64,000 nucleotides of DNA from Actinomycetota bacterium (GCA_028717265.1 JAQUOE010000005.1:4190-68189); one strand, 5' to 3'; shown: positions 16,811 to 46,831, counted from the stretch's first letter. Notes: a model not told the origin generated them from the letters alone. Numbers and translations: made by a program.

Positions 16811-17479
16811 ATGTATAAATTATTGAGTTATTATGTAAAGACAAATAACCCTAAATATCCCGGTCACCCGGGTAATGAGTTTGAAAGTGTATTGAAAATA
16901 GAAAAAGGGAATATTTGTAATTCAACAAGAATAAAACTATTTACTCATAACGATACGCATATTGATTCGCCATATCATTACAATACAAATGGCATAAAAG
17001 TCCATGAAATTAGCCCCGATAATTTTTTCTATAACAAAGTAGCAGTTGCAAACCTGGAAGGTAAAATTGGTAAAGAAATTACTATTTCTGATGTGGGAAA
17101 AATATCAGATGATGCTGATATGCTAATGATCCATACAGGCATTTCCAGATATTGGATTAATTCTCCCGAGGAATATGTTGCAAAAGAAAATCAACCCTGG
17201 ATATCAAGGGAACTTACAGATTATTTGATAAGGGAGAGCAATATAAAGGGCATAAGTGTCGATTTTATGAGCGTCGATAATATAGATGATATCGAAAATA
17301 AAGATCCTTTCGTACATCGGGTTTTTTTAGGTATGAATGATTTATCGAAAATCATTTTTATTTATGAAAATGTCAATATTAAAACAATATTGAATGAGAG
17401 TGTAAAAAAGATATATGCGTTCCCGCTGTTACTTTATGGATTAGATGGTGCGCCTGTTACTATGGTAGCTGAAATTTAA
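16811..17479 (+). CDS. cyclase-family protein (kynurenine-formamidase-like metal hydrolase), paralogue 1
   Basis: YPGHPG...HNDTHIDSPYH matches the HxGTHxDxPxH metal-binding motif of the PF04199 'putative cyclase' family. Confidence 0.75.
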   Translation: MYKLLSYYVKTNNPKYPGHPGNEFESVLKIEKGNICNSTRIKLFTHNDTHIDSPYHYNTNGIKVHEISPDNFFYNKVAVANLEGKIGKEITISDVGKISDDADMLMIHTGISRYWINSPEEYVAKENQPWISRELTDYLIRESNIKGISVDFMSVDNIDDIENKDPFVHRVFLGMNDLSKIIFIYENVNIKTILNESVKKIYAFPLLLYGLDGAPVTMVAEI

Positions 17480-25785: not shown

Positions 25786-26556
25786 TTGAAAGAATTTTTT
25801 GACATTAAAGATTATTGCGTAATTATTACGGGTGCAAATAGGGGCCTGGGGAAAGAAATGGCATTAGCATTTGCGGATTGCGGAGCAAATGTAGTAATAA
25901 CTTGCAGAGACCTGAACTCAGTTGCAGAGTTAGTTAAGGTTATTGAAAAGAAAAATGTGCAAGTATTACCAATAAAAATGGATGTGAGAAATGAGGATGA
26001 AATCAATCAGATGGTTGAGGATGTCATGGAAAAATTTGGAAAAATTGATGTTCTGGTTAATAATGCTGCTATTTGTCAGACCGTAGAAGTGGAAAATATG
26101 AAGACAAGTGATTGGAATGAGACAATAGATGTTAATTTAACCGGTGTTTTCCAGGTTTCAAAAGCTGTCGGGAGGAAAATGATTCTACGAAAAAAAGGAT
26201 CAATTATAAATATATCATCAATTTCTGGATTTATTATGAATCATCCTCAGAAGCATACTGCATATTGTGTATCCAAAGCCGGCGTTATTATGCTTACGAA
26301 AGGTATGGCTGCCGAATGGGCCGAATATAATATAAGAGTCAATAGTGTCGCACCGGGTTACACAACCGGAGGGATGGCTAAGCCATCAGTAGAAGAGGGT
26401 GGAGAAATGGCTGAAAGATGGCGGTCATTAATACCTATGCATAGATTTGGAAAACCTGGTGAACTAAGCGGTATTTTAATTTATCTTGCTTCGGAAGCTT
26501 CGACGTATACCACAGGAGCTACTTTTTTGATAGATGGTGGTTTTACTGTTTGGTAA
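25786..26556 (+). CDS. SDR-family oxidoreductase (KduD/gluconate-5-DH-like)
   Basis: ITGANRGLGKEMA, NNAAI, YCVSKAG motifs. Confidence 0.85.
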   Translation: MKEFFDIKDYCVIITGANRGLGKEMALAFADCGANVVITCRDLNSVAELVKVIEKKNVQVLPIKMDVRNEDEINQMVEDVMEKFGKIDVLVNNAAICQTVEVENMKTSDWNETIDVNLTGVFQVSKAVGRKMILRKKGSIINISSISGFIMNHPQKHTAYCVSKAGVIMLTKGMAAEWAEYNIRVNSVAPGYTTGGMAKPSVEEGGEMAERWRSLIPMHRFGKPGELSGILIYLASEASTYTTGATFLIDGGFTVW

Positions 26557-26600
26557 AAAATATAATTTCAATGGTCATAGAGCATCTGGGAGTGTAAAAA

Positions 26601-28268
26601 ATGAAATTTGGTGATGATAACAGGCGTATACTTGAAGGAGATGAAGGAGCCCAATTAAGGTCTTTGTATAAAAGCATGGGTTATACCAATGACGATTTAA
26701 GAAGGCCAATGATTGGAGTAGTCAATTCGTGGAATACAGCATGTTCCGGTCAATTTAATCTGCGCGCAGTTGCAGAATCTGTAAAAAATGGGATTTATAG
26801 AGCTGGAGGTACGCCAGTCGAGTTCGGTACCATAGGGCCATGTGATGGTATTGGAATAGGTAACAATGGAATGAAATATATTTTACCGTCCAGGGACCTG
26901 ATCGCACAGAGTGTAGAAGTTATGGCATCAGCACATTCATTGGATGCTGTAGTTTTATTGGGAAGCTGCGATAAGATAGTGCCCGGATTATTAATGGCAG
27001 CCGCAAGGTTAAATATACCCGCGATTTTAGTGCCCGGTGGTCCAATGCTGCCCGGTAAATTTGAAAATAAATTTATTGATGTAAATCAGGTAATGATTAA
27101 TTTAGGTGCACTTTATTCAGGAAAATTGACAAAAGAAAAATTTAAAGAATTAGAGAGGGTTGCATGCCCTACTTCAGGTTCCTGCCAGATGATGGGTACA
27201 GCAAATACTTTTTGTAGTTTTTCAGAAGCTATTGGTATGAGTTTACCATCGAGCGCAGCTATACCTGCTGTTTATTCTGAAAGATTACATTCGGCGCAAG
27301 ACGCTGGGAAAAAAATACTGGAATTATTCCAAAAGAATATTAGACCAAGAGACATAATGACCAAAGAAGCAATAATCAATGGCATAAGAGTTGCGATGGC
27401 AGTAGGGGGTTCCACTAATTTAATATTGCATACAATGGCTCTGGTAAATTCTCTGGATATAGATTTTAAAATTGATGAATTTAATGATATCAGTGACAGT
27501 ACGCCTTATTTATGTTCTCTGGCACCTGCCGATAATTCAAAAACCATGATTGATTATTATTTTGCAGGAGGTGCCGCTGTTGTTATGAAGGAATTGGAGA
27601 GTTTACTTGATTTAAATTGTATTACAGTAAGCGGTAATACACTGAAGGAAAACTTGAAGGTTATTATAAATAAGGACAATGAAATGATAAGACCGATCAG
27701 CCGGTCTTTTAGAAATACAGGTGGTCTGGCGATTTTGAGAGGTAACCTTGCTCCGGATAGTGCGGTTACGAGACCCGCCGTGATTGCAAAAGAATGCAGA
27801 CAAATGTGCGGTCCGGCAAAAGTATTTAATTCGGAAAATGAGTTTTTTAAAGCAATTAATAAAAGTGCCATTAAAGAGGGCGATGTCATAGTTGTGAGAT
27901 ATGAGGGTCCCAGAGGTGGTCCGGGAATGAGAGAGATGTTCATACCTCTGGAAATTATAAAGGGTATGGGTCTTGAGGGAAAAGTAGCCATTATTACTGA
28001 TGGCCGTTTTTCCGGTTCTAATTCTGGCAGCTTTGTCGGACATATTTGTCCTGAAGCTGCCGATGGTGGCCCGATAGCTTCCGTGAAAGATGGCGATATT
28101 ATCGACATTGATATAGATAAAAAAACAATAAATATGAGAGTCTCTGATGATGAGATAAAAAATAGACTTAAAAATATTTCCGAAGTAAAAAGGGATATAG
28201 GCAACGGCTACTTATCATTTTATGTAAAACATGTGAGTCCATCCTCAAAAGGTGCGGTTTTAATATAG
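26601..28268 (+). CDS. IlvD/EDD-family dehydratase (dihydroxy-acid / sugar-acid dehydratase)
   Basis: CDGIGIG and LLGSCDKIVPGLLMAAARLNIPAILVPGGPM motifs, with C-terminal ITDGRFSG. Confidence 0.85.
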   Translation: MKFGDDNRRILEGDEGAQLRSLYKSMGYTNDDLRRPMIGVVNSWNTACSGQFNLRAVAESVKNGIYRAGGTPVEFGTIGPCDGIGIGNNGMKYILPSRDLIAQSVEVMASAHSLDAVVLLGSCDKIVPGLLMAAARLNIPAILVPGGPMLPGKFENKFIDVNQVMINLGALYSGKLTKEKFKELERVACPTSGSCQMMGTANTFCSFSEAIGMSLPSSAAIPAVYSERLHSAQDAGKKILELFQKNIRPRDIMTKEAIINGIRVAMAVGGSTNLILHTMALVNSLDIDFKIDEFNDISDSTPYLCSLAPADNSKTMIDYYFAGGAAVVMKELESLLDLNCITVSGNTLKENLKVIINKDNEMIRPISRSFRNTGGLAILRGNLAPDSAVTRPAVIAKECRQMCGPAKVFNSENEFFKAINKSAIKEGDVIVVRYEGPRGGPGMREMFIPLEIIKGMGLEGKVAIITDGRFSGSNSGSFVGHICPEAADGGPIASVKDGDIIDIDIDKKTINMRVSDDEIKNRLKNISEVKRDIGNGYLSFYVKHVSPSSKGAVLI

Positions 28269-28386
28269 TTCTTTGTCAATTTATAGTCATATAAATGTAT
28301 TTATTGAAATTTATTTTATGTTTTTATGAAATTATTATTATAGCTAATTAATTTAATGAATAAGTCCTGATCCTGGAGGTATATTA

Positions 28387-29268
28387 ATGAAGAAAATAAA
28401 AGGTGTAGTACCCCCGATGATTACACCGTTTAAAAAAAATGGGGATTTAGATGTTGAGAACTTGAAAAAACTCATCAGGTTTTTAAAAAATGAAGTTGAT
28501 GGATTGTTTATAACCGGTTCTTATGGCTCGGGAGCCCTGATGAATTTAGAAGAGAGAATGAAAGTAGCTGAAATAACATCAGAAATATTGGAAGGTAAGA
28601 TACCATTTATCACTATGGTCGGGACTACGAATAATAGAGACTCGGTTGAGCTGGCAAAACATTCAGAGAGGTCCGGTGCGACCGCAGTAGCAGCTACCGG
28701 TCCTTATTATTATAAGCACAACAAAGAAGATTTAATGAGATTTTATACAGATTTAATAGAATCTGTTAGTATTCCGGTTTATTTATATAATAATCCAAAG
28801 TTTCAGGGTTATGAAATTAGCTTATCAACTATAAAAGAATTAAAGAAAATAGGTTTAAGAGGTATAAAAGACGCAACTTTTGATATCCTGGTTCATGCCA
28901 ACTACCACAGGGTTTTAAAGGACAATGAATTTGATATTGTTTTAGGAACGGAAGCAATGTGGCTGGCCGCAAGAACCCTGGGTTGCGAAGCTTTTATACC
29001 GGGACTCGCAAATGTGTTTCCTGAAATAAATAGAAAAATGTATAAAGAGGGTATGTGTAACAATATTGAAGCATGCAGGGAAACTCAATTTATGGTAAAT
29101 AGAATCCGCGAGATAATGTACCTGGCAAGATCCACACAATTAGCGGTATATGCCATGTTAGACATAAGAGGTATTGTTAAATGCTATCCCAGAGCGCCGT
29201 TCGTGGAGGCGACAGGAGAAGAAAAAAAGAAAATAAAGGTTGAATTAAAGAAAATAAAAATGATTTAA
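28387..29268 (+). CDS. DHDPS/NAL-family class I aldolase (2-keto-3-deoxy-acid aldolase candidate), paralogue 1
   Basis: VPPMITPF..., GLFITGSYGSG, and the Schiff-base Lys context GIKDATFD. Confidence 0.8.
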   Translation: MKKIKGVVPPMITPFKKNGDLDVENLKKLIRFLKNEVDGLFITGSYGSGALMNLEERMKVAEITSEILEGKIPFITMVGTTNNRDSVELAKHSERSGATAVAATGPYYYKHNKEDLMRFYTDLIESVSIPVYLYNNPKFQGYEISLSTIKELKKIGLRGIKDATFDILVHANYHRVLKDNEFDIVLGTEAMWLAARTLGCEAFIPGLANVFPEINRKMYKEGMCNNIEACRETQFMVNRIREIMYLARSTQLAVYAMLDIRGIVKCYPRAPFVEATGEEKKKIKVELKKIKMI

Positions 29269-29314
29269 ATTTTAATTAAATTAGTGACTTTACTTATTTA
29301 TATTCAAAAAAGAT

Positions 29315-30337
29315 ATGTATGCAGCTATAGACACAGGTACTACAAATACAAGGATTTATATTATTGATGATAATTATAGGGTAGTAAATAAGGCTGAAAA
29401 AAAAATTGGCGTTAGAGAAACTGCCATTACAGGTTCAAAAAAGAAACTCAAAGAAGGACTGTTATCATGTTTTGAAGATGCAGTAAGAAATTCCGGAGTT
29501 GGTACCAGTGATATAAAATTTATTTTAATCTCCGGTATGTTAACTTCAGAAATTGGCTTATTGGATATTCCTCATTTAAAAGCGCCTGTTGGGATCCAGG
29601 AGCTGGTTAGTAATGTTAAAATCATAAAGGATACAGAAATTTTTCCGGTTAGCATACCATTAATATTTATTCCCGGTATAAAAAATAATATAAAAGATAT
29701 GAATATTACAAATATTCGAAAAATAGATTTTATGAAAGGCGAAGAGACACAGGTATTTGGGATTCTTCAAAAGCTGAAACCTGAGTTACCATGTAACGTA
29801 ATATTTTTCAGCTCACACACAAAACTAATTCATATAAGTATAGGAGAAAAGATTGCAGGTAGTATCACTACACTCAGCGGGCAGATTTACGAAGCGATAA
29901 AAAAGCAAACGTTTATAGGGAAAAGTATTACTCATAACGATTATGGCGTGGTTGATGATTTCTTTTCTGCAAAACTTCTAAAAATTGCGCTGGAAAGTGT
30001 CGAAAATGCTGGATTTTTACGTTCATTGATGATGCCGCGTTTCATGGAAGTATTAATGGATACCACGAGTTACGAAAGGGAATTTTTCGTAAATGCAGTG
30101 ATCTCATCGGAAGACATAAAAATTTTGCATGAAGCAAAAAAATTAATGGGTTTTGATATTAATAATGCCCCGGTTATTCTTATCGGAAACAAAACAAGAT
30201 GCAGAATTTTTAAAGAGTTACTTAAGATTAATAAATTAAATCTTTCAGTTCGAAGTATTTGTGATAATGATTCAATAGATGAGTTCGTCGTTGAAGGTGG
30301 GAAAATGGTCGTTAAGCAAATGATCGATAGACCATGA
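29315..30337 (+). CDS. 2-dehydro-3-deoxygalactonokinase-like (DgoK family) sugar-acid kinase
   Basis: N-terminal AIDTGTTNTRIY and IFIPGI...MKGEETQVFGIL align with the DgoK AIDWGSTNLRAW / IIPGL...MRGEETQLIG blocks. Confidence 0.65.
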   Translation: MYAAIDTGTTNTRIYIIDDNYRVVNKAEKKIGVRETAITGSKKKLKEGLLSCFEDAVRNSGVGTSDIKFILISGMLTSEIGLLDIPHLKAPVGIQELVSNVKIIKDTEIFPVSIPLIFIPGIKNNIKDMNITNIRKIDFMKGEETQVFGILQKLKPELPCNVIFFSSHTKLIHISIGEKIAGSITTLSGQIYEAIKKQTFIGKSITHNDYGVVDDFFSAKLLKIALESVENAGFLRSLMMPRFMEVLMDTTSYEREFFVNAVISSEDIKILHEAKKLMGFDINNAPVILIGNKTRCRIFKELLKINKLNLSVRSICDNDSIDEFVVEGGKMVVKQMIDRP

Positions 30338-30476
30338 TTTTATGAATTTTTAAATGATTTAATTCTATTATCTTTTATCATTTAAGAAAACATTTTTTAA
30401 TCACTTTAAAAAATATCCTGTAACTTATATTGATAAAGGTAGTGCGATTAATAAATATGATATGAGTGAGAAAAAA

Positions 30477-31973
30477 TAATGCTAAATTGTGATGTTTTAA
30501 TAGTGGGCAGTGGTGTCGTAGGTTCCAGCGTTGCAAGAGAACTTTCTAAATATGAAATAGAAATAATATCAGTCGAGAAAAATTCTGATGTCGGATTCAG
30601 CAATACAAGCAGAGGAAGTGCCGGTTGGATTCATTCAGGTATTGGTTCCGGAGTCGGATTTTTTGGTGACCTTGCCAACAAATTGATAGTGCCTGGAAAT
30701 AGGATGATGGATCGGTTATGTAAAGAATTAGAGGTACCTTTTGCGCGAAAGGCCGAGATCTTCGTAGCAAGAAGCGAAGAAGCAGAAAAAGTTTTTAAAG
30801 ATTTCGAATCACAGGGTTTGAAAAACGGAGTAAAGGGCATAAAGATATTAAAGAAAGACGAACTTGTAGAAATAGAACCATATATAACGGAAAAAGCCAG
30901 ATCAGGTTTTTTCTCCCCGTCATCAGGAGTGGTCTCGCCCTGGGAACTAATATATGCTCAAGTCGAGAATTCTAAGGAAAATGGAGCCGAAGTTCTTTCA
31001 GGCACCGAAGTAAGAAATATTACCAGAGATAACAATGGAAAGTTAATCGTAGAAACGACTGATGGCGAAATAAGCACAAAATATGTAATAAATTCAGCAG
31101 GTCTGTGGGCAGATACTGTTGCCAGCATGGTCGGCGATAACACTTTCGAAATAATTCCAAGAAAAAGCCAGGCACTGATCACCGATAAGATATCAGGGAA
31201 ATTAGTGAAGAATATATTTTTTGATGCCAGCCAGTGGATAAAACCATATACAGGAACTTGTATCGGACCCTCAACAGAAGGCAATATTTTCATTACCGGA
31301 AATGATGCGGAGGCAAATTCAAAAACCGATATTGCTGACAGCGCCGGTGCCATAAAGAATATGATAAAATACGCGAGAGACCTGTTTCCTTCAATAACAT
31401 CTAAAGATATCATTAGATATTATACAGGTATTCGTGCCTTAAATACCCTGAAAAATGATTTTATCATTGAGCCATCAAAAGTATTGCCCCAGCTAATAAA
31501 TGTCCAGGCCGGGAGCGGGGGCATGACCTGTTGCATAGCTATAGCAAAATATGTGGCAGAGATATTAAAAAAAGAAGGCTTGAACCTGGTCAATAAATCC
31601 GATTTCAATCCAAATAGAAAAGCCATACCCAGACCAGTAGAGTCATCAGAAGAGGAAATTACGGAACTTATAAAGAAAGACCCAAGATATGGGCATATCG
31701 TTTGTCGCTGTGAGCATGTTAGCGAAGGAGAAATTGTAGAGGCTATAAAAAGGGGAGCCAGGACTGTGGACGGTATAAAATTCAGGACAAGAGCCGGGAT
31801 GGGTCGCTGTCAGGGTGGCTTCTGCTCTTCCCGTATTCTTAAAATCATTTCGCGTGAATTAAATGTTCCGGTGACCAGCATCAATCAAAAAGAAAAGGAT
31901 AGTGAACTTGTCTTATTTAAGACTAAAGATTTACTGACAATCGGAAAGAAAGATGGTCATGAATAGTAAAAAA
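30477..31973. repeat. ~1.5 kb perfect direct repeat, copy A
   Basis: Sequence identical to 34395..35891 (offset 3918). Spans the entire glpA-like ORF plus the first ~20 nt of the partner gene. Confidence 0.9.
30479..31966 (+). CDS. FAD-dependent oxidoreductase with C-terminal BFD-like [2Fe-2S] domain (GlpA-like), copy 1
   Basis: VLIVGSGVVGSSVA dinucleotide fold. C-terminal CRCEHVSEGEIVEAIKRG...GRCQGGFC BFD-like cysteine motif. Confidence 0.75.
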   Translation: MLNCDVLIVGSGVVGSSVARELSKYEIEIISVEKNSDVGFSNTSRGSAGWIHSGIGSGVGFFGDLANKLIVPGNRMMDRLCKELEVPFARKAEIFVARSEEAEKVFKDFESQGLKNGVKGIKILKKDELVEIEPYITEKARSGFFSPSSGVVSPWELIYAQVENSKENGAEVLSGTEVRNITRDNNGKLIVETTDGEISTKYVINSAGLWADTVASMVGDNTFEIIPRKSQALITDKISGKLVKNIFFDASQWIKPYTGTCIGPSTEGNIFITGNDAEANSKTDIADSAGAIKNMIKYARDLFPSITSKDIIRYYTGIRALNTLKNDFIIEPSKVLPQLINVQAGSGGMTCCIAIAKYVAEILKKEGLNLVNKSDFNPNRKAIPRPVESSEEEITELIKKDPRYGHIVCRCEHVSEGEIVEAIKRGARTVDGIKFRTRAGMGRCQGGFCSSRILKIISRELNVPVTSINQKEKDSELVLFKTKDLLTIGKKDGHE

Positions 31974-33230
31974 TTAGATATGTTAATCATAGGCGGAGGT
32001 CCGGCCGGATTAGCTGCAGCTATTAAAGCTAAAGAAAGCGGGATTGATAATTTAATGGTAATAGAGAGATCCGAGGAATTAGGAGGTCTGTTACATCAAT
32101 GCATACACAACGGATTCGGATTGCACTATTTCAAAGAAGATCTAACAGGTCCTGAATATGCTTTAAAGTTTATAAACAAAGTAGATAAACTTGGTATCAA
32201 TTATCTTTTAAAGACAATGGTATTGGATATTACACCTGATAAAAATGTGTTTGCCATTAATTCTGAAAATGGATTAATAAAATTTTCACCTAAGACTATT
32301 GTACTGGCTATGGGTTGCAGAGAAAGAACGAGATACAACATATTAATACCCGGTACAAGACCGGCGGGTATTTTTACGGCCGGTAATGCCCAGAGACTGA
32401 TTAATGTCGAAGGTTATATACCTGGCGATCAAGTTGTAATCTTAGGATCCGGTGATATCGGTATGATAATGGCACGCCGATTGACACTTGAGGGGGCCGA
32501 AGTTAAAGCTGTTGTAGAAATTTTACCATACATAGGCGGTCTTATTAGAAATGAAGTTCAGTGTTTGAATGATTTTAATATCCCTACTTTTTTGGAACAT
32601 ACGGTCACTGAGGTTTATGGATCAGACAGGATAGAAGGTGTAGAAATAAATCGTATCGATAAAAATGGGAAAAAAACACTCAGTACGGGTAGATACATAA
32701 AATGCAATACTCTTCTTCTGTCTGTCGGTTTGATACCGGAAAACGAGCTTTCGATTAAGGCAGGGGTAGAAATCGACCAGGTAACAGGCGGGCCTATTAT
32801 AGATGAAAATATGCAGACAAATGTTCCAGGAATATTTGCCGGTGGTAATGTTGTTCACGTTCTTGATTTAGCAGACAATGTAAGCCTGGAATCAGAAATT
32901 GCCGGATTAAGTGCTTCAAAGTATTTATCGGGCGAACTTCACCGTTCACATAAAAAAATAAAAGTAAGTGCCGGCAAAGGTATAAGATATGTTGTCCCTC
33001 ATTACATAAGCGGCAAAGAGGGGATCAATCTGTATATGAGAGTCTCAAATCCGGAAGAAAATGCAACTCTTAAAATTACGGATAAATTTAATAATAAAAT
33101 TATTTATGAGAAAAAATTTCAAGCTTTAAAGCCCAGCGAAATGGTATGTACCATGATTACTGAAGATAATATTAATCTTATAAATAATGAATCCGGTGAA
33201 ATTATCATATCCTGTAATAAGAAAGAATAA
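31953..33230 (+). CDS. NAD(P)/FAD-dependent oxidoreductase (pyridine nucleotide-disulfide family) partner subunit
   Basis: IIGGGPAGLAAA and ILGSGDIGM dual dinucleotide folds. Start overlaps the upstream gene's stop. Confidence 0.7.
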   Translation: MVMNSKKLDMLIIGGGPAGLAAAIKAKESGIDNLMVIERSEELGGLLHQCIHNGFGLHYFKEDLTGPEYALKFINKVDKLGINYLLKTMVLDITPDKNVFAINSENGLIKFSPKTIVLAMGCRERTRYNILIPGTRPAGIFTAGNAQRLINVEGYIPGDQVVILGSGDIGMIMARRLTLEGAEVKAVVEILPYIGGLIRNEVQCLNDFNIPTFLEHTVTEVYGSDRIEGVEINRIDKNGKKTLSTGRYIKCNTLLLSVGLIPENELSIKAGVEIDQVTGGPIIDENMQTNVPGIFAGGNVVHVLDLADNVSLESEIAGLSASKYLSGELHRSHKKIKVSAGKGIRYVVPHYISGKEGINLYMRVSNPEENATLKITDKFNNKIIYEKKFQALKPSEMVCTMITEDNINLINNESGEIIISCNKKE

Positions 33231-33232
33231 AA

Positions 33233-33604
33233 ATGAATATAAAAAAAATCATATGTCTGGGGTGTCCCCTTGCTTGTAATATTAACGTAGAAATTAATAA
33301 AGATGAGATAATGAGAGTCAGGGGAGCTAAATGTAAAGTTGGGAAAAAGTATGCAATTCAGGAGTGTAAAGAACCAAGGCGCGTACTCACAACTACCATA
33401 AGGACTACAGAAGCAGACAGACCTCTTTTACCGGTAAGGACCGGAGATTCCATACCGAAAGAATCGATCGCTGAATGCATGAAAATTATGTCAAAGAAGA
33501 TAATAAGTCCGACTATAAAAGCCGGTGATATTGTAATAGAAAATATATCAGGTACCGGCGTGAATGTAATAGCGACCGGAAATCTTTTTGGTTCAGAAAA
33601 GTAA
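33233..33604 (+). CDS. DUF1667-like Cys-rich small subunit
   Basis: CLGCPLAC...C..G motif. Third member of the GlpA-like triad seen in anaerobes. Confidence 0.6.
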   Translation: MNIKKIICLGCPLACNINVEINKDEIMRVRGAKCKVGKKYAIQECKEPRRVLTTTIRTTEADRPLLPVRTGDSIPKESIAECMKIMSKKIISPTIKAGDIVIENISGTGVNVIATGNLFGSEK

Positions 33605-33639
33605 GAATATTTTAAAAATAAAAAAAGTAGGAGGTAATC

Positions 33640-34305
33640 ATGTTTGCATTAATTTCTTACCCGATCGGGGAAAAAGAGACCGTTCCATATAAAATAGAGC
33701 CCAAACCAAAATTAATCCCTAAAGCACGAATTTCAAAAGGTGATATAAATAATACAAGTATGCTGGAAATGAGTGTTCATGGGGGTACTCATATTGACGT
33801 TCCTTTTCATACAGACCCAAACGGATTGACGATAGATAAAATGGATATCCAGGATTTTATATTTGAAAGTCCTCTGCTGATAGAATGCCGGAAAAGTGAT
33901 TTTGAAACAATAACCAGGGAAGATTTGATCCCATTTTGCAAAGATTTAGAAAAAGCCGATTTTTTAATGATATATTCAGGTTTTAGTGAGTACAGATTTA
34001 CTGATTCAGATAGGTTTATCAATAACTCATGCGGTATTTCAAAAGATGGAGCTGAATATCTCGTAAATAATTTTAATTTAAGAGGCGTGATGGTTGATTT
34101 TCTTGGAGTCGAGAATATAAATGAAGGTCTTGAAAAAGGTTTCAAGGCTCATGAGGTATTCTTAGCAAGGGGAAAGAAATTTATTGTTGTAGAAGATGGA
34201 AATTTTAAGCATATTTTAAATAAAGAAATAAAAAGAGTATTTATCATACCTTTGATGCTGGTAGGTGCAGAAGCGTCTCCGGTTACTGCATTTGTTGAAA
34301 TATAA
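33640..34305 (+). CDS. cyclase-family protein, paralogue 2
   Basis: HGGTHIDVPFH motif. Strong RBS ggagg. Confidence 0.75.
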   Translation: MFALISYPIGEKETVPYKIEPKPKLIPKARISKGDINNTSMLEMSVHGGTHIDVPFHTDPNGLTIDKMDIQDFIFESPLLIECRKSDFETITREDLIPFCKDLEKADFLMIYSGFSEYRFTDSDRFINNSCGISKDGAEYLVNNFNLRGVMVDFLGVENINEGLEKGFKAHEVFLARGKKFIVVEDGNFKHILNKEIKRVFIIPLMLVGAEASPVTAFVEI

Positions 34306-34338
34306 AAAACAGTGTGAATGTTTGTAGTAAGATTTTTA

Positions 34339-34358
34339 TACTCCGGATATCCGGAGTA
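34339..34358. promoter_or_regulatory. perfect 20-bp palindrome TACTCCGGATATCCGGAGTA at the junction upstream of repeat copy B
   Basis: Seen directly. Confidence 0.3.
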
Positions 34359-34394
34359 GATACTTAAAGCAATGAATAAAATTAGAACGAGTTA

Positions 34395-35891
34395 AAATGC
34401 TAAATTGTGATGTTTTAATAGTGGGCAGTGGTGTCGTAGGTTCCAGCGTTGCAAGAGAACTTTCTAAATATGAAATAGAAATAATATCAGTCGAGAAAAA
34501 TTCTGATGTCGGATTCAGCAATACAAGCAGAGGAAGTGCCGGTTGGATTCATTCAGGTATTGGTTCCGGAGTCGGATTTTTTGGTGACCTTGCCAACAAA
34601 TTGATAGTGCCTGGAAATAGGATGATGGATCGGTTATGTAAAGAATTAGAGGTACCTTTTGCGCGAAAGGCCGAGATCTTCGTAGCAAGAAGCGAAGAAG
34701 CAGAAAAAGTTTTTAAAGATTTCGAATCACAGGGTTTGAAAAACGGAGTAAAGGGCATAAAGATATTAAAGAAAGACGAACTTGTAGAAATAGAACCATA
34801 TATAACGGAAAAAGCCAGATCAGGTTTTTTCTCCCCGTCATCAGGAGTGGTCTCGCCCTGGGAACTAATATATGCTCAAGTCGAGAATTCTAAGGAAAAT
34901 GGAGCCGAAGTTCTTTCAGGCACCGAAGTAAGAAATATTACCAGAGATAACAATGGAAAGTTAATCGTAGAAACGACTGATGGCGAAATAAGCACAAAAT
35001 ATGTAATAAATTCAGCAGGTCTGTGGGCAGATACTGTTGCCAGCATGGTCGGCGATAACACTTTCGAAATAATTCCAAGAAAAAGCCAGGCACTGATCAC
35101 CGATAAGATATCAGGGAAATTAGTGAAGAATATATTTTTTGATGCCAGCCAGTGGATAAAACCATATACAGGAACTTGTATCGGACCCTCAACAGAAGGC
35201 AATATTTTCATTACCGGAAATGATGCGGAGGCAAATTCAAAAACCGATATTGCTGACAGCGCCGGTGCCATAAAGAATATGATAAAATACGCGAGAGACC
35301 TGTTTCCTTCAATAACATCTAAAGATATCATTAGATATTATACAGGTATTCGTGCCTTAAATACCCTGAAAAATGATTTTATCATTGAGCCATCAAAAGT
35401 ATTGCCCCAGCTAATAAATGTCCAGGCCGGGAGCGGGGGCATGACCTGTTGCATAGCTATAGCAAAATATGTGGCAGAGATATTAAAAAAAGAAGGCTTG
35501 AACCTGGTCAATAAATCCGATTTCAATCCAAATAGAAAAGCCATACCCAGACCAGTAGAGTCATCAGAAGAGGAAATTACGGAACTTATAAAGAAAGACC
35601 CAAGATATGGGCATATCGTTTGTCGCTGTGAGCATGTTAGCGAAGGAGAAATTGTAGAGGCTATAAAAAGGGGAGCCAGGACTGTGGACGGTATAAAATT
35701 CAGGACAAGAGCCGGGATGGGTCGCTGTCAGGGTGGCTTCTGCTCTTCCCGTATTCTTAAAATCATTTCGCGTGAATTAAATGTTCCGGTGACCAGCATC
35801 AATCAAAAAGAAAAGGATAGTGAACTTGTCTTATTTAAGACTAAAGATTTACTGACAATCGGAAAGAAAGATGGTCATGAATAGTAAAAGG
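34395..35891. repeat. ~1.5 kb perfect direct repeat, copy B
   Basis: Identical to 30477..31973. Confidence 0.9.
34397..35884 (+). CDS. FAD-dependent oxidoreductase with BFD-like domain (GlpA-like), copy 2
   Basis: Protein 100% identical to copy 1. Followed only by a vestigial 'MVMNSK...' start of the partner gene. Confidence 0.75.
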   Translation: MLNCDVLIVGSGVVGSSVARELSKYEIEIISVEKNSDVGFSNTSRGSAGWIHSGIGSGVGFFGDLANKLIVPGNRMMDRLCKELEVPFARKAEIFVARSEEAEKVFKDFESQGLKNGVKGIKILKKDELVEIEPYITEKARSGFFSPSSGVVSPWELIYAQVENSKENGAEVLSGTEVRNITRDNNGKLIVETTDGEISTKYVINSAGLWADTVASMVGDNTFEIIPRKSQALITDKISGKLVKNIFFDASQWIKPYTGTCIGPSTEGNIFITGNDAEANSKTDIADSAGAIKNMIKYARDLFPSITSKDIIRYYTGIRALNTLKNDFIIEPSKVLPQLINVQAGSGGMTCCIAIAKYVAEILKKEGLNLVNKSDFNPNRKAIPRPVESSEEEITELIKKDPRYGHIVCRCEHVSEGEIVEAIKRGARTVDGIKFRTRAGMGRCQGGFCSSRILKIISRELNVPVTSINQKEKDSELVLFKTKDLLTIGKKDGHE

Positions 35892-35996
35892 CGGAAATTT
35901 TTGTATTTTATTGTATAAGCGAGAAAGGACAAAAATTTTATTTCCAGACATATTTAAAACTAATTTGAAAAATAAATCATAGGGAAATATATTGAG

Positions 35997-36887
35997 ATGG
36001 TATTGATATCAGCTTTTCCAAAATGTTGGTTAGAAGACATTTCAGAAGGAAGGATGGATTTATTTGAGTGGATAGAAATCTCAAAAAATCTTGATTGCGA
36101 TGGTTTAGAAATTTATTATCGTTTTTTGAAATGTTTGAAATCGGATTATTTAAAAAGAGTCAGGAGGAAAGTCGAAGAACTCAATATGACTATCCCTATG
36201 ATATGTTATTCTTCTGATTTTACAAATCCGGAAAGAGGTATCAGAAAAAAAGAAATAAAAAAGCAGATAGATTTTATCAAGATTACCTCCGAACTTGGCG
36301 GCAGTTATTGCCGTATTCTTTCGGGTCAGGGGCGCCCGGGAGTGTCAGATGAACTGGCCACAAAATGGGTGATTGATTGCATTGAGTCATGTTTGGGAGC
36401 TGCCGAGGATAATGATATTTGCCTGGTTTTAGAAAATCACTATAAAGACAGTTATTGGAAGTTTAAGGAATTTGCCCAAAAAAAAGATATTTTCTTAGGA
36501 ATAGTCAATAGAATCGATTCACAATATTTTGGAGTTCAATATGATCCCTCTAATGCAATTGTAGCCGGTGAGGACCCGATAGATCTTTTGGATGAAGTAT
36601 TGGATAGAGTTAAAACAATGCACGCCAGTGATAGATATCTGAGACCAGGTTTTTCTTTGGATGACATTATTAAGGCAGATGGGGATCCCGGTTACTCCAA
36701 AGGTCTCGTGCATGGTGTTGTTGGTGAAGGACTGAATGATTATGACGCCATATTTAGCAGATTATCCGGTGTAAAATTTAACGGCTGGATTTCAATAGAA
36801 GATGGCATGAATGGTTTTCACGAAATGGAAAAATCAGTTAAGTTCTTAAAAAAAATGAGAGATAAATATTTTGCCGGTAATGTCTGA
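35997..36887 (+). CDS. xylose-isomerase-like TIM-barrel sugar (phosphate) isomerase/epimerase, family A paralogue 1
   Basis: AP_endonuc_2-like TIM barrel. ~60% identical paralogue of 62195..63085 (shared SAFPKCW...ISIEDGMNGF). Confidence 0.75.
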   Translation: MVLISAFPKCWLEDISEGRMDLFEWIEISKNLDCDGLEIYYRFLKCLKSDYLKRVRRKVEELNMTIPMICYSSDFTNPERGIRKKEIKKQIDFIKITSELGGSYCRILSGQGRPGVSDELATKWVIDCIESCLGAAEDNDICLVLENHYKDSYWKFKEFAQKKDIFLGIVNRIDSQYFGVQYDPSNAIVAGEDPIDLLDEVLDRVKTMHASDRYLRPGFSLDDIIKADGDPGYSKGLVHGVVGEGLNDYDAIFSRLSGVKFNGWISIEDGMNGFHEMEKSVKFLKKMRDKYFAGNV

Positions 36888-36998
36888 TAATCTATGGCCA
36901 TTATAACTGTTCCTGATTTCAGTTTATCCCGATACTTTCATTCATCACCAGCTTTGAACCATTTTTCCGGCATCTTTGAGCCAGTTATTTGCTCTATA

Positions 36999-37478
36999 TT
37001 AAGAATTAATAAGTTCGTAACTGTGGCTATATATTTCAAATACTATTCCAAAAGGGTCTTCCACAAAACACATTCTATAAGAATTTTTACCTTTATTAAA
37101 ATATCTTACAGGCATCCTTTGCTTACCACCGGATTCCACAATCTTCTTTATAAGTTCTTCAAGGTCAGGATCTTTTATGCAGAAGTGAAACAGGCCTGTT
37201 TTTGAGTAGCTAAAACTGTCGGTTGTCGGTTTATTATCGGAAAATTCGAATATCTCTATACCTATGCCATCACCGGTTGACATATGGGCAACTTTAAATT
37301 TGGACCATTTTTCCCCGAATACGTCTCTTGCCATTAAACAATCCTCTGAATCGGTATTTTCAATTGTTTCCGGCTCCTTTATGATGTACCAGCCCATAAC
37401 TTCATTATAAAATTTTAAAGCCTTGTCTAAATTCGGTACGGAAAGACCAATATGGGCGAGTGTTCTGGGATAAGTCAT
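36999..37478 (-). CDS. VOC-family (glyoxalase/bleomycin-resistance fold) protein, paralogue 1
   Basis: AHIGLSVPNLDKALKFY start and paired beta-alpha-beta-beta-beta modules. Confidence 0.7.
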   Translation of the reverse strand: MTYPRTLAHIGLSVPNLDKALKFYNEVMGWYIIKEPETIENTDSEDCLMARDVFGEKWSKFKVAHMSTGDGIGIEIFEFSDNKPTTDSFSYSKTGLFHFCIKDPDLEELIKKIVESGGKQRMPVRYFNKGKNSYRMCFVEDPFGIVFEIYSHSYELINS

Positions 37479-40538: not shown

Positions 40539-40573
40539 CATGGCAAACGATGAGTTTTTTCAAGGAGGAAAAA

Positions 40574-41248
40574 ATGATAGTCGAATTATCGTATTTAATT
40601 GGCGATTTGAATCCGGTTGAAATGTTAGGATTGTTAAAACCCGATATTAAATGGAGAGCAAGGTTTGGAGATGGTCAGGGCAAAAGCAATCAAACAAGTA
40701 ATATAGAAATGTCCAGTCATAATGGTACACACATAGATGCTCCATTTCATGTTTTAGAGAATGGAAAAAAAATAACGGATTTCGATATTTCCAATTTTTA
40801 TTTCGAAAAGGTTTTAGTTATTGATTGCGAAAAGAAAGACCTTGAAAAAATAGAGATAAATGACCTGAAACCTTATGAGAAGAATTTAAAAAATATTCAA
40901 TTATTGTTGATTTATACTGGTTTTAGCAAGTACAGATTTACGGAGACGGAAAGATATATAAAAAAATCACCGGGCTTTTCAATTGAAAGTGCTAAATTTA
41001 TTAAAAACAATTTTCCGAATATTAGATGTATCGGCGTTGATCTTATGGGTATTGAGAATATTATTGAAGGTAGGGAATCAGAATGGGTAATTCATAAAAT
41101 ATTATTTGAGGGTAATTCTAATTATTTTCATATTGAAGATATGAATGTTAAACCTGTTGCAGATAAAGAAGTTAAGAGAGTATTCATAGGACCAATCAGG
41201 TTTATTGGGTTGGAAGCTTCTCCCGTTACGATTATGGCAGAAATCTAG
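40574..41248 (+). CDS. cyclase-family protein, paralogue 3
   Basis: HNGTHIDAPFH motif. Start placed at the ATG six nt after the aaggagg RBS (the ORF track's upstream start is less likely). Confidence 0.75.
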   Translation: MIVELSYLIGDLNPVEMLGLLKPDIKWRARFGDGQGKSNQTSNIEMSSHNGTHIDAPFHVLENGKKITDFDISNFYFEKVLVIDCEKKDLEKIEINDLKPYEKNLKNIQLLLIYTGFSKYRFTETERYIKKSPGFSIESAKFIKNNFPNIRCIGVDLMGIENIIEGRESEWVIHKILFEGNSNYFHIEDMNVKPVADKEVKRVFIGPIRFIGLEASPVTIMAEI

Positions 41249-43691: not shown

Positions 43692-44456
43692 TTGAGAATG
43701 AATGAAGAATTTTCCAATAAAGTATGTATTGTAACCGGGGGAGCAACAAATATCGGGAAAGTTACAGCTCTGTCGTTTGCCAGAGGAGGCGCTAAAGTAG
43801 CAATTATCGATATCAAAGAGAAGGAAGGTAAAGAGACCTTAAAGGAAATCGAGCAGTATTCGGAAGGTTTATTCATTAAAACCGATATAGCTCTGTGCGA
43901 TAATGTAAAGAAATCGGTGAAAGAAGTATATGATAAATTCGGACATATTGATATCCTGGTCAATAACGCTGTTATTTGTTTGCATTGTTACGGCAAGGAT
44001 GTTTCAGAGGAAGTATGGAATAAAATGACGGATGTCAATCTTAAGGCCTTATTCTTTTTTTCACAGGAAGTATCGAAAATAATGAAAATCCAGAAGAGCG
44101 GAAGAATTATTAATACGGCATCTTCAACCGGGGTAGCTGCGAGAAAAGATTATTTAGTATATACCGGTCAGAAAGCAGGAGTGATCGGTCTTACTAAAGC
44201 ACTGGCATTAGAATTAGCAGAATATAATATTCTGGTCAATTCAGTTTCACCTGGTTATGTTTTAACAAAGGCAAAAGAGAAATTGGTTAAAGATAGGAAA
44301 TTTATGAATTGGCTAAAAACAAGAATACCAATTGGAAGATTTATATCTATGCAGGAAATTGCTAATGTGTATTTATTTTTAGCATCCGATAGATCTTCCG
44401 CCATAACTGGCCAGAATATTATTGTTGATGGAGGCTGGCTTATTAATCAAGGATAA
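43692..44456 (+). CDS. SDR-family oxidoreductase (tandem copy 1)
   Basis: VTGGATNIGK, NNAV, Y..K motifs. Full-length classical SDR. Confidence 0.85.
   Translation: MRMNEEFSNKVCIVTGGATNIGKVTALSFARGGAKVAIIDIKEKEGKETLKEIEQYSEGLFIKTDIALCDNVKKSVKEVYDKFGHIDILVNNAVICLHCYGKDVSEEVWNKMTDVNLKALFFFSQEVSKIMKIQKSGRIINTASSTGVAARKDYLVYTGQKAGVIGLTKALALELAEYNILVNSVSPGYVLTKAKEKLVKDRKFMNWLKTRIPIGRFISMQEIANVYLFLASDRSSAITGQNIIVDGGWLINQG
43705..43972. repeat. 268-nt identical segment shared by the 5' halves of the two tandem SDR genes (copy A)
   Basis: Identical to 44502..44769. A second ~50-nt identical patch lies at ~44043..44092 vs ~44840..44889. Confidence 0.85.
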
Positions 44457-44491: not shown

Positions 44492-45241
44492 ATGGATCAA
44501 AAAGAATTTTCCAATAAAGTATGTATTGTAACCGGGGGAGCAACAAATATCGGGAAAGTTACAGCTCTGTCGTTTGCCAGAGGAGGCGCTAAAGTAGCAA
44601 TTATCGATATCAAAGAGAAGGAAGGTAAAGAGACCTTAAAGGAAATCGAGCAGTATTCGGAAGGTTTATTCATTAAAACCGATATAGCTCTGTGCGATAA
44701 TGTAAAGAAATCGGTGAAAGAAGTATATGATAAATTCGGACATATTGATATCCTGGTCAATAACGCTGTATTAATAATTCCCAAATCCGTTCTGGATATT
44801 TCGGAAGAAGAATTTGATAGAATGCATAATATAATTTGCAAAGCATCATTCTTTTTTTCACAGGAAGTATCGAAAATAATGAAAATCCAGAAGAGTGGGA
44901 AAATCGTTAATATAGCAACCAGTCCTGGAGAAAACAAAAAGCATACCTACCATATTCCAAAAGCCGGGGTTATAAGAATGACCCAGGCATTTGCAGTTAA
45001 ACTTGCAGAATTTAACATAAATGTTAATTCGGTTTCACCAAATTTCACTCTCACTGACAGGCATATACCGGGGGTTTGTCCTGAAAAAACTTTGGAATTT
45101 TATAAAGAAAGAGCACCCATGGGCAGATTTGTTACAATGGAAGATGTTGCAAATGCAGTTTTATTTTTTGCATCAGAAAAGTCTTCAATCATAAATGGGC
45201 AGGATCTGGTTTTAGATGGTGGCTGGTCCATACACGCTTAA
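44492..45241 (+). CDS. SDR-family oxidoreductase (tandem copy 2, divergent substrate-binding half)
   Basis: First ~94 residues identical to copy 1, then divergent. Confidence 0.8.
   Translation: MDQKEFSNKVCIVTGGATNIGKVTALSFARGGAKVAIIDIKEKEGKETLKEIEQYSEGLFIKTDIALCDNVKKSVKEVYDKFGHIDILVNNAVLIIPKSVLDISEEEFDRMHNIICKASFFFSQEVSKIMKIQKSGKIVNIATSPGENKKHTYHIPKAGVIRMTQAFAVKLAEFNINVNSVSPNFTLTDRHIPGVCPEKTLEFYKERAPMGRFVTMEDVANAVLFFASEKSSIINGQDLVLDGGWSIHA
44502..44769. repeat. 268-nt identical segment (copy B)
   Basis: See copy A. Confidence 0.85.
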
Positions 45242-45268
45242 ATTACAAAGTAATTATTGTTTTACAAT

Positions 45269-46831
45269 ATGAGTAAAAAATATATTATCACTTATGATAT
45301 AGGTACTACAGGTGCTAAGGCATGTTTATTCGATCAAAACTTAAATGTTATCGCATCTGATTTCGTTTCTTATAGAACTTATTATCCTAAAGAAAATTTA
45401 TCGAATCAAAAACCAACTGAATGGTGGAATGCTGTTTGTAAAAGTACAAAGAGATTAATTGATGTTTCTAAAATAGATAACAAAGAAATAGTTGTTATCG
45501 GAGTTGCCGGGCAGTACCCTGTTATAGTACCAATCGATAGAAACAATGAATTGCTAACTGACGATGTCCCCGTATTTTCCGATATAAGGGCTATCAAGCA
45601 GGCTGAAAGATTAGTCAACGGAATTGGAAGTTCTGATGGTTTATATAAAATAATTGGAAGTGGCAGACAGGCTATGTTAAGTGTATGTAAGGCTATGTGG
45701 ATTAAAGATAATTATCCTGGTACATTTAAAAAAGTACATAAATTCGTAGCGACGAAAGATTATATAAATATGAAATTAACCGATGTTCTTAGTACCGATT
45801 ATAGCGATTTTTGTGCCAGTGGTTTTATGGATATAAGTAAAAGGCAATTTTCAGATGAAATTTTAGATGTATCAGGTATCAAAATTGATAAAATTCCGGA
45901 AATACGTAAGTCACATCATATTATTGGGGGTGTTAGCAAAAAAGCTGCAGGAAGCACCGGTCTGAAAGAGGGCACCCCGGTTATAGCGGGAGCTGCAGAT
46001 GCGCTGTGCGCCTGTATAGGTTCAGGAGTAATTGAAAAAGGGGAAGCATGCATGAGCATTGGCTCTGTAAACTGGACCAGTATAGTAGCGGGTGAGCCTT
46101 TTTTAAATACAAATTATAAGGTTTCCAGTCAATTACCTTTTCCATGGGAAAATGCTTATAATCCCTTGATTGATACTTATGCAGGTGGTTTAAGTCAGGA
46201 ATGGTTTAAAAACAAAATTTATAAGACTGAAGAATTGATATTTAAAGAATTGAATTTGAATATTTATGATTTCATGAATAAAAAAGTCGAGGAAATTAAT
46301 CCCGGATCGGATGGATTATTATTTTTGCCTTATTTAAAAGCTGAAGGTCCGCCTTATTATAATCCGAATATGAGAGCATCTTTTATAGGATTAAGTATGT
46401 ATCATAATAGGGAACATATGCTCAGATCAGTATTTGAAGGAACTTGTTTAAACATGAAACTTCTTTTAGAGATATTTAATAAAAATGGTGTAACAGTAAA
46501 TGACTTTAAAGAAATCAAGGTTGTAAGTGGTGGGGTAACTTCCAGAAATTGGATGCAGTGTTACTCGGATATTCTAAATATGCAATTAGCAGTAGTCAAG
46601 GATCCCAGGCAGGCAACGACAAAAGGTATAGCGATTGTAGCAGGTGTAGGGGCTGGAATTTGGAAAAGCTTTAAAGATGCCACTGCCCTGACTGGAATTA
46701 GTGAAATTTATGAACCTCAAATAAAATTTCAGGAAAAATATAGAAAATTATTTGAAGTTTATAAAAAATGTAGTTTAAAAATGGTAGAGATTTGCAATGA
46801 TCTGGCAGATTTTAGGGAAGATAAAAAATAA
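45269..46831 (+). CDS. FGGY-family carbohydrate kinase (xylulokinase/glycerol-kinase-like)
   Basis: YIITYDIGTTGAKACLFD N-terminal ASKHA motif. The ORF-track start at 45257 is a TTG; ATG at 45269 preferred. Confidence 0.8.
   Translation: MSKKYIITYDIGTTGAKACLFDQNLNVIASDFVSYRTYYPKENLSNQKPTEWWNAVCKSTKRLIDVSKIDNKEIVVIGVAGQYPVIVPIDRNNELLTDDVPVFSDIRAIKQAERLVNGIGSSDGLYKIIGSGRQAMLSVCKAMWIKDNYPGTFKKVHKFVATKDYINMKLTDVLSTDYSDFCASGFMDISKRQFSDEILDVSGIKIDKIPEIRKSHHIIGGVSKKAAGSTGLKEGTPVIAGAADALCACIGSGVIEKGEACMSIGSVNWTSIVAGEPFLNTNYKVSSQLPFPWENAYNPLIDTYAGGLSQEWFKNKIYKTEELIFKELNLNIYDFMNKKVEEINPGSDGLLFLPYLKAEGPPYYNPNMRASFIGLSMYHNREHMLRSVFEGTCLNMKLLLEIFNKNGVTVNDFKEIKVVSGGVTSRNWMQCYSDILNMQLAVVKDPRQATTKGIAIVAGVGAGIWKSFKDATALTGISEIYEPQIKFQEKYRKLFEVYKKCSLKMVEICNDLADFREDKK

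Follow-up and report, generated by a model that had tools for sequence, protein, structure and literature searches.

The DNA analysed here, referred to below as the window, is a stretch of 64,000 nucleotides (nt) from a contig of a metagenome-assembled genome (MAG) of an uncultured landfill bacterium, deposited as Actinomycetota bacterium (GCA_028717265.1, JAQUOE010000005.1:4190-68189). It carries two directly repeated and nucleotide-identical copies of a gene for a flavin adenine dinucleotide (FAD)-dependent dehydrogenase of 495 amino acids (aa), the first of which heads a triad of genes resembling the 'GlpTk' glycerol-3-phosphate dehydrogenase complex. A preliminary description of the locus had drawn attention to this duplication. 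In the following, U denotes the sequence up to 30477, R the repeat, X the segment 31972..34395 and D the sequence from 35890 onward. The features of the region are listed below, with positions counted from the first letter of the window.

30478..31971, plus strand: R copy 1 (gene 30479..31966), 495-aa FAD-dependent dehydrogenase with a C-terminal BFD-like [2Fe-2S] domain (exact repeat limits and Pfam).
30577..30664, plus strand: segment of copy 1 that matches the variable patch, with a single-nucleotide polymorphism (SNP) site at 30577 and a hyper-variable part at 30616..30664 (alignment and translations).
31953..33230, plus strand: partner gene, NOX-like Pyr_redox_2 NAD(P)/FAD oxidoreductase, starting within the 3' end of R (Pfam, 1.4e-33).
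33233..33604, plus strand: DUF1667 Cys-rich protein, the 'MOX' of the GlpTk complex (Pfam, 3.7e-27, and literature).
33640..34305, plus strand: putative cyclase, arylformamidase-like, 44% identical to the product of 40550..41248 and 30% to that of 16811..17479.
34339..34358, no strand: perfect 20-bp palindrome, TACTCCGGATATCCGGAGTA, with an 8-bp stem and a 4-nt loop, without a T tract.
34396..35889, plus strand: R copy 2 (gene 34397..35884), an exact repeat lying between the cyclase and TIM-barrel genes.
34495..34582, plus strand: segment of copy 2 that differs in two contigs from Ontario (L002 and L003) and here equals copy 1 (alignment).
35871..35889, plus strand: stub of the partner-gene start, ATG GTC ATG AAT AGT AAA A, read as MVMNSK (sequence, compared with that from 31953).
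35997..36887, plus strand: xylose-isomerase-like TIM barrel (AP_endonuc_2), unrelated to the triad (Pfam).

A repeat search of the window showed that 30478..31971 and 34396..35889 are the same over 1,494 nt, with 0 mismatches and an offset of 3,918 nt; a perfect repeat of 1.5 kb cannot have arisen by chance. The bases immediately outside differ on both sides (30477 T versus 34395 A; 31972 A versus 35890 G), and the limits given previously, 30477..31973 and 34395..35891, extended too far, by 1 nt at the left end and 2 nt at the right end, while the identity itself was correct. R consists of 1 nt 5' of the ATG, the 495-aa open reading frame (ORF; 30479..31966 in copy 1 and 34397..35884 in copy 2) and 5 nt past the TAG, and its 3' end takes in the ATG of the partner gene and the first six codons, MVMNSK, so that the earlier account of its content, a full gene plus a partner start, was borne out. 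Beyond these limits the flanks fall to chance identity (20-37%, ungapped). No local alignment of upstream with upstream sequence, or of downstream sequence with the partner gene, X or R, exceeded shuffled controls, and the sequence upstream of copy 2 aligned with the junction of the R end and X start no better than shuffles did. An apparent likeness, ATGAAT...AAAATTAGA, 5' of copy 2 was dismissed since its alignment scores were likewise not above those of shuffles. The copies are separated by a spacer of 2,424 nt (31972..34395); the 3.9 kb formerly said to lie between them is the period of the repeat, although the partner genes and cyclase ascribed to that interval are indeed there. The arrangement differs from a simple tandem duplication in that the repetition is confined to the first 1,494 nt of the 3,918-nt period.

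The protein encoded by R matched Pfam DAO (2.1e-58) and Fer2_BFD (8.6e-15), with a four-Cys motif, CRCEH...GRCQGGFC, in its translation. Downstream of copy 1 are the Pyr_redox_2 and DUF1667 genes, and in agreement with the preliminary description the Pfam matches make copy 1 the head of a triad; copy 2 is followed instead by the vestigial partner start and the unrelated TIM-barrel gene, likewise as described. The order dehydrogenase-partner-DUF1667 is kept in the nearest relative found, a 5.7-kb contig (L006) on which the dehydrogenase, 60% identical, occurs in one copy. The N-terminus of the partner protein, MVMNSKKLDMLIIGGGPAG, equals that of its orthologue in this relative, MNKTSKNVDLLVIGGGPAG, in length only if translation starts at the ATG inside R. 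The conserved order and the partner start within R together place copy 1 in its native context. The stub behind copy 2 consists of MVMNSK and nine unrelated codons, with a stop after 15 codons. At 80 loci with orthologues of the TIM-barrel gene, none (0/80) had a nearby homologue of R, the partner, DUF1667 or the cyclase; a conserved pair of a GlpA-like and a TIM-barrel gene was rejected on the same grounds. Given the native context of copy 1, the stub in copy 2 and these 80 loci, copy 2 is derived from copy 1 and specific to this lineage. The view of copy 2 as 'orphaned' did not hold, as it lies on the same strand and in the same gene string, 2.4 kb downstream, and encodes an identical protein.

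Both copies are annotated in the NCBI MAG, on a contig of 68,435 nt: a protein 100% identical to the 495-aa product has two accession numbers there, MDD5621885.1 and MDD5621889.1, which are separated by four. Exact-protein look-up retrieved contigs of four further assemblies, which were aligned to the window; the same kind of look-up with the DGOK-like protein of the window returned no record. JGI assembly 3300029288 derives from Southern Ontario landfill leachate well LW4, the Logan contigs (k=31) from SRR22315506, and the ENA assembly was produced by MEGAHIT. The SRR223155xx runs probably belong to the NEUS landfill project, with MAGs built by metaSPAdes (k 33-127) from 2x150 reads; we infer the tie between this project and the source MAG. 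In the Logan contigs the breaks fall exactly 30 nt within R, at either end of it: one (L005) consists of 30 nt of R tail, X and 30 nt of R head, and another (L008) of 30 nt of R tail and D; over 7,875 nt, L008 matches the window at 100% identity. Three ENA contigs comprise, respectively, U with 328 nt of R head (L011), 119 nt of R tail with X and R head (L002), and 537 nt of R tail with D (L007). From JGI, L003 has R tail, X and R head, and L001 (Ga0265297_10020830) has 26200..31971 joined to 35890..37049, that is, U-R-D minus one 3,918-nt period. The junction of U and R is thus supported by L001 and L011, those of R with X and of X with R by L002-L005, and that of R and D by L001, L007 and L008. 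The start points of L007 and L003 inside R could not be fitted to k-mer sizes.

As X always follows an R tail and precedes an R head, a linear genome with X in it must have R on both sides of X. Since the four junctions recur in independent landfill assemblies, the layout with two copies did not arise from a mis-join. In the Ontario sample, furthermore, the copies can be told apart, each tied to its own flank, as R positions 100-187 differ between L011 and L002/L003. L011 and L002 both stop at R position 328, 141 nt past the last difference, as would be expected if two separate paths met in a k=141 graph; with the heads on the U side and on the X side being different, an artefact of loop traversal cannot account for them. 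L001 is either an assembler (metaSPAdes) shortcut through the shared body or a real deletion variant of the RecA type. The comparison of single- and two-copy arrangements elsewhere, which had been proposed as a check, thus turned up the four junctions repeatedly and also this single-copy contig. We conclude that a genuine duplication took place recently. Events of this kind are ordinary; the enzyme system in which it is found is uncommon.

Copy 2 of the Ontario strain (L002/L003) differs from the window by a SNP at 34495 and by a 49-nt patch (the equivalents of 34534..34582) in which 13-16 positions mismatch, according to how it is aligned, and 12 nt are deleted in frame, while the U-side head in the same sample (L011, L001) equals R of the window. 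Both window copies carry a 4-aa insertion (SGIGSGVG versus AGVG/AGIG) directly after the FAD-site motif TSxxxxxIHxG, at 30616..30664 and 34534..34582; a shorter, canonical loop is found in the Ontario copy 2, in the 60% relative and in Mycoplasma pneumoniae GlpO. The Ontario patch is thus the ancestral-like form, its length fitting both the 60% relative (ASNAWVHAGIGFPG) and GlpO. The differences in the patch include synonymous changes and therefore point to an old divergence rather than a burst of mutation. A donor for either version was sought within the window, where nothing was found at ≤3 mismatches and only chance 10-11-mers occurred; a scan of the JGI metagenome returned only the two contigs already known, and the databases searched held no donor, the nearest known homologue being 60% identical. 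A homologue search with the first 145 aa of the R protein, for variants of the head, gave no match. As the Ontario and window strains share their junctions yet differ in the patch of copy 2, at least one recombination event took place after the duplication: either copy 1 overwrote the patch in the lineage of the window, or the patch was imported from outside in the Ontario lineage.

Outside a few SNP clusters the strains differ by approx. 0.1% (1/2424 in X, 7/7956 in D and 1/1494 in R), with 24/12,091 differences in U, nine of them in 30106..30322. At this level, copies slightly older than the split of the strains would be expected to differ at about 1.5 positions and to show 0-2 differences, and zero is not significantly fewer. 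The preliminary description had treated the zero divergence as informative; the identity stands, and its weight is reduced by the closeness of the strains and by a possible collapsed edge in the assembly. Likeness within and between genomes could be compared only among strains approx. 0.1% apart, the next relative being 60% identical. The mosaic of identical and diverged tracts that marks gene conversion was seen in the Ontario copy 2 and in a second gene pair of the window, whereas the two window copies of R are uniform. This second pair consists of tandem short-chain dehydrogenase (SDR) paralogues (43692..44456 and 44492..45241; 66% aa identity overall). They have in common an exact tract of 268 nt (43705..43972 = 44502..44769), which begins approx. 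10 nt into the ORFs, and another block of near identity at approx. 44050..44100, the rest being diverged; contigs L007 (ENA) and L008 (Logan) are both interrupted where the exact tract begins. The SDR pair is clearly a textbook gene-conversion mosaic, and conversion is active in this genome. The earlier proposal of a recent duplication and/or gene conversion is supported by the lineage-specific copy 2 and by this mosaic.

The SNP clusters that separate the strains comprise nine SNPs in 217 nt (30106..30322, the 3' end of the DGOK-like gene), three in 100 nt (28082..28181, ILVD) and, in another strain (L013), seven in 96 nt (29410..29505). They look like short imports by homologous recombination from a relative 4-7% divergent.

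The explanation that we favour, and regard as about equally liable to be right or wrong, is a young second copy of a GlpTk-like flavin dehydrogenase gene, the two copies still exchanging sequence by recombination. Copy 1 would be the original, heading the conserved triad with the partner start codon inside its 3' end, and copy 2 would have been made from it with the partner-start stub carried along, and placed between the cyclase and TIM-barrel genes in a recent common ancestor of the ~99.9%-alike landfill strains. The separate loci would then trade sequence by homologous recombination (gene conversion), the Ontario copy 2 retaining a short divergent patch and the window strain having been fully homogenised; the direction and timing of the conversion are what this scenario would require, and we infer them. 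Copy 2 would act as a second dose of the same catalytic subunit in one gene string, and the 1.5-kb direct repeats would make the 3.9-kb unit of R, partner, DUF1667 and cyclase prone to loss or amplification of the RecA type.

Several observations weigh against this explanation. Perfect identity does not by itself demand conversion in strains only ~0.1% apart, and conversion does not easily explain identity that runs up to non-homologous flanks. If the MAG was assembled by metaSPAdes from 2x150 reads, the copies would be one collapsed edge in which isolated SNPs are invisible; a patch like that of the Ontario strain would still be seen at k=127, because the shared head before its first difference is only 99 nt long. 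The ancestral-like form of the patch in the Ontario copy 2 complicates the derivation of copy 2 from a derived copy 1, and the patch may be a short import from a relative, in which case conversion between the copies would be unneeded. Finally, the direct U-R-D join in L001 means that single-copy genomes may coexist with those of two copies.

The main competing account is a young duplicate without any conversion, made just before the split of the strains, with the Ontario patch as an import from a related lineage. It would need the fewest events; at a baseline strain divergence of ~0.1% zero differences in 1,494 nt are unremarkable, and short imports with clustered SNPs are present in the same strains (30106-30322, 29410-29505 and 28082-28181). 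However, the patch, which packs 13-16 mismatches and a 12-nt indel into 49 nt, is far above the 4-7% of those other imports, its donor was found neither among homologues (nearest 60%) nor in the metagenome scan, which gave the same two contigs, and the SDR pair demonstrates that conversion takes place within this genome. We therefore favour the young duplicate with exchange, and consider its counterpart without exchange possible and somewhat doubtful. We think it unlikely that the copies are old paralogues homogenised by repeated conversion, with homology left in the ORF only and the Ontario patch as a last unconverted remnant. Such a history would suit an identity bounded by the ORF between flanks without homology, a patch with synonymous and non-synonymous changes and an indel, as expected of old divergence that resists heteroduplex formation, and the SDR pair, where a mosaic of the same type has its identity from ~10 nt inside the ORF. 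Yet conversion tracts need homology beyond their ends, which makes identity to -1 and +5 hard to obtain; copy 2 bears the partner-start stub, a feature of the copy 1 context; and no second gene was present in the 60% relative or at the 80 TIM-barrel orthologue loci.

An assembly artefact, in which a single real copy was doubled by a mis-resolved loop, a strain mixture or a small R-X circle, or in a milder form the identity alone came from a collapsed edge, would fit the origin of the window in a MAG contig, the exact loss of 3,918 nt in L001, the appearance of X as a separate small contig in every short-read assembly and the probable pipeline (metaSPAdes on 2x150 reads). It is very unlikely in view of the R tail and R head that flank X throughout, the Ontario heads on U and on X, whose difference is impossible for a loop artefact, and the want of a replication gene on a 3.9-kb circle; the gross artefact envisaged earlier, a single copy or a mis-join, is not supported, given the recurrence of the junctions and the difference between the Ontario copies. 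The milder form, with SNPs hidden between the copies, may still apply. We attach still less credence to a selection-driven, dynamic array U-(R-X)n-R-D of variable copy number, of which the contig would be the minimal form: direct repeats of 1.5 kb are good RecA substrates and the assembly graph fits any n ≥ 0, with L001 as n = 0, but the head after X in Ontario differs from that after U, which fits n = 1, and there is no sign of selection. Transfer of the copy by a mobile element or cassette system (insertion sequence, composite transposon or integron) would account for the sharp, gene-sized boundaries and perhaps the palindrome 37 nt upstream, and it is extremely improbable: Pfam and NCBIfam searches showed no transposase, integrase or recombinase among the neighbours, the repeat ends have no terminal inverted repeats, attC or target-site duplication, and the palindrome, a feature of the spacer, occurs nowhere else in the window. 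Hallmarks of tRNA genes were likewise not found at the locus. No feature of a mobile element accounts for the ORF-exact limits, and conversion would not be expected to reach non-homologous flanks.

Concerted evolution by gene conversion is known from tufA/tufB of Salmonella and Escherichia coli. The present pair resembles that case in that two copies in one genome are held identical or nearly so, with a mosaic copy in one strain; it differs in that the copies lie 2.4 kb apart as direct repeats in one gene string, that identity ends at the ORF edges and that youth alone could explain the identity. In the general model of bacterial gene amplification, tandem or segmental duplications undergo repeat-mediated amplification or deletion. 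The locus is like this in having direct repeats that bracket a 2.4-kb segment, and L001 corresponds to the deletion product U-R-D.

In Thermococcus, the glycerol-3-phosphate dehydrogenase complex 'GlpTk' consists of G3PDH, the NADH oxidase NOX and DUF1667/'MOX' (Koga et al. 2019, as cited in PMC11962113 and bioRxiv 10.1101/2024.02.29.582781), and there are bacterial relatives in Thermotoga maritima and Clostridium perfringens. The triad of the window has the same gene order and domains (a DAO fold with C-terminal BFD-like [2Fe-2S], Pyr_redox_2 and DUF1667). It differs in that the catalytic gene is doubled, both copies having the 4-aa insertion after the IHxG motif, and in its surroundings: 5' of R are genes for an ILVD/EDD-family dehydratase, a DHDPS-family aldolase and a DGOK-like kinase, a sugar-acid string, and the TIM-barrel gene is followed by a minus-strand glyoxalase gene and a DeoR regulator. 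Since the triad does not adjoin glpK/glpF, its substrate is uncertain; with ILVD_EDD, DHDPS and DGOK as immediate neighbours, the sole FGGY kinase lies 9 kb downstream (45257..46831).

Canonical GlpA (of GlpABC) was rejected on scores (TIGR03377, 140.6 bits versus a cut-off of 552.8; PRK11101, 102 versus 425) and on the downstream genes, which include neither GlpB nor GlpC. A type 2 glycerol-3-phosphate oxidase was also rejected (NF033460, 202.1 bits versus 460), a BFD domain and partner genes being present. The closest solved structures, M. pneumoniae GlpO (PDB 4x9m), L2HGDH and the proline dehydrogenase beta subunit of Pyrococcus horikoshii, match over the DAO domain only. GlpO and L-2-hydroxyglutarate dehydrogenase/oxidase, the best structure and NCBIfam matches over that domain, differ in having no BFD domain or partner subunits, and the scores lay far below the cut-offs (202 versus 460 and 136 versus 299 bits). 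After the identical record, the next homologue of the 495-aa protein was the 60% relative, and a scan of reference genomes gave 76 pattern matches and no relatives.

The 20-bp palindrome is perfect, as had been stated; contrary to what had also been stated, it does not lie at the junction of copy 2 and is located 37 nt upstream of it, within the spacer. It is unique in the window, G+C-rich inside an A+T-rich intergenic region and conserved in all strains as part of the spacer. We rejected a terminator (there is no T tract), a member of an operator family (the palindrome occurs once in the window) and a known RNA element (no Rfam match). Promoter-like sites were found only at the rate of shuffled sequence, and no role of the palindrome in the duplication was found; it may serve to bind a protein or form a hairpin in RNA. 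A mini-ORF of seven codons (MNKIRTS, stop TAA; 34372..34395) ends at the last spacer base, 1 nt 5' of the ATG of copy 2, and could provide translational coupling to copy 2 or be a coincidence.

The segment 16811..63085 is a dense island of sugar-acid and polyol catabolism with many old sets of paralogues: three cyclases, two DHDPS, two TIM barrels at 63%, five SDRs and three glyoxalases. It also holds two sets of substrate-binding and ABC genes, and recent identity was seen only in the R pair and the SDR pair. A plus-strand ORF of 103 aa (36894..37205) had no family match and overlaps the minus-strand glyoxalase-family gene 36999..37478; as other assemblies call the minus-strand gene, the plus-strand ORF is probably spurious. 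The NCBI label 'Actinomycetota bacterium' stands against a G+C content of approx. 35% in the window and best protein matches scattered over Spirochaetes, Firmicutes and others; the source MAG may have been given too coarse or an incorrect taxonomic label.

The locus is chiefly of use as a worked example: even without reads, the reality of a perfect repeat in a MAG contig can be judged from the points at which independent assemblies break. Two details of the locus are puzzling, namely the ORF-exact limits (-1/+5) and the hyper-divergent patch beside the FAD site. There is an outside chance that the copies form a functional pair of alleles, one with the canonical loop and one with the 4-aa insertion after IHxG, which strains toggle or homogenise by conversion. 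Were this so, the locus would represent cassette-like switching of a catalytic subunit served by one shared set of NOX/DUF1667 partners, and the ORF-precise limits would reflect non-random, gene-exact copying. The locus represents no new kind of system and has no bearing on a long-standing question; what it offers is a very young duplication of the catalytic subunit in a poorly studied anaerobic flavoenzyme complex of the GlpTk type, within a sugar-acid pathway, together with strain-level evidence of recombination between the copies.

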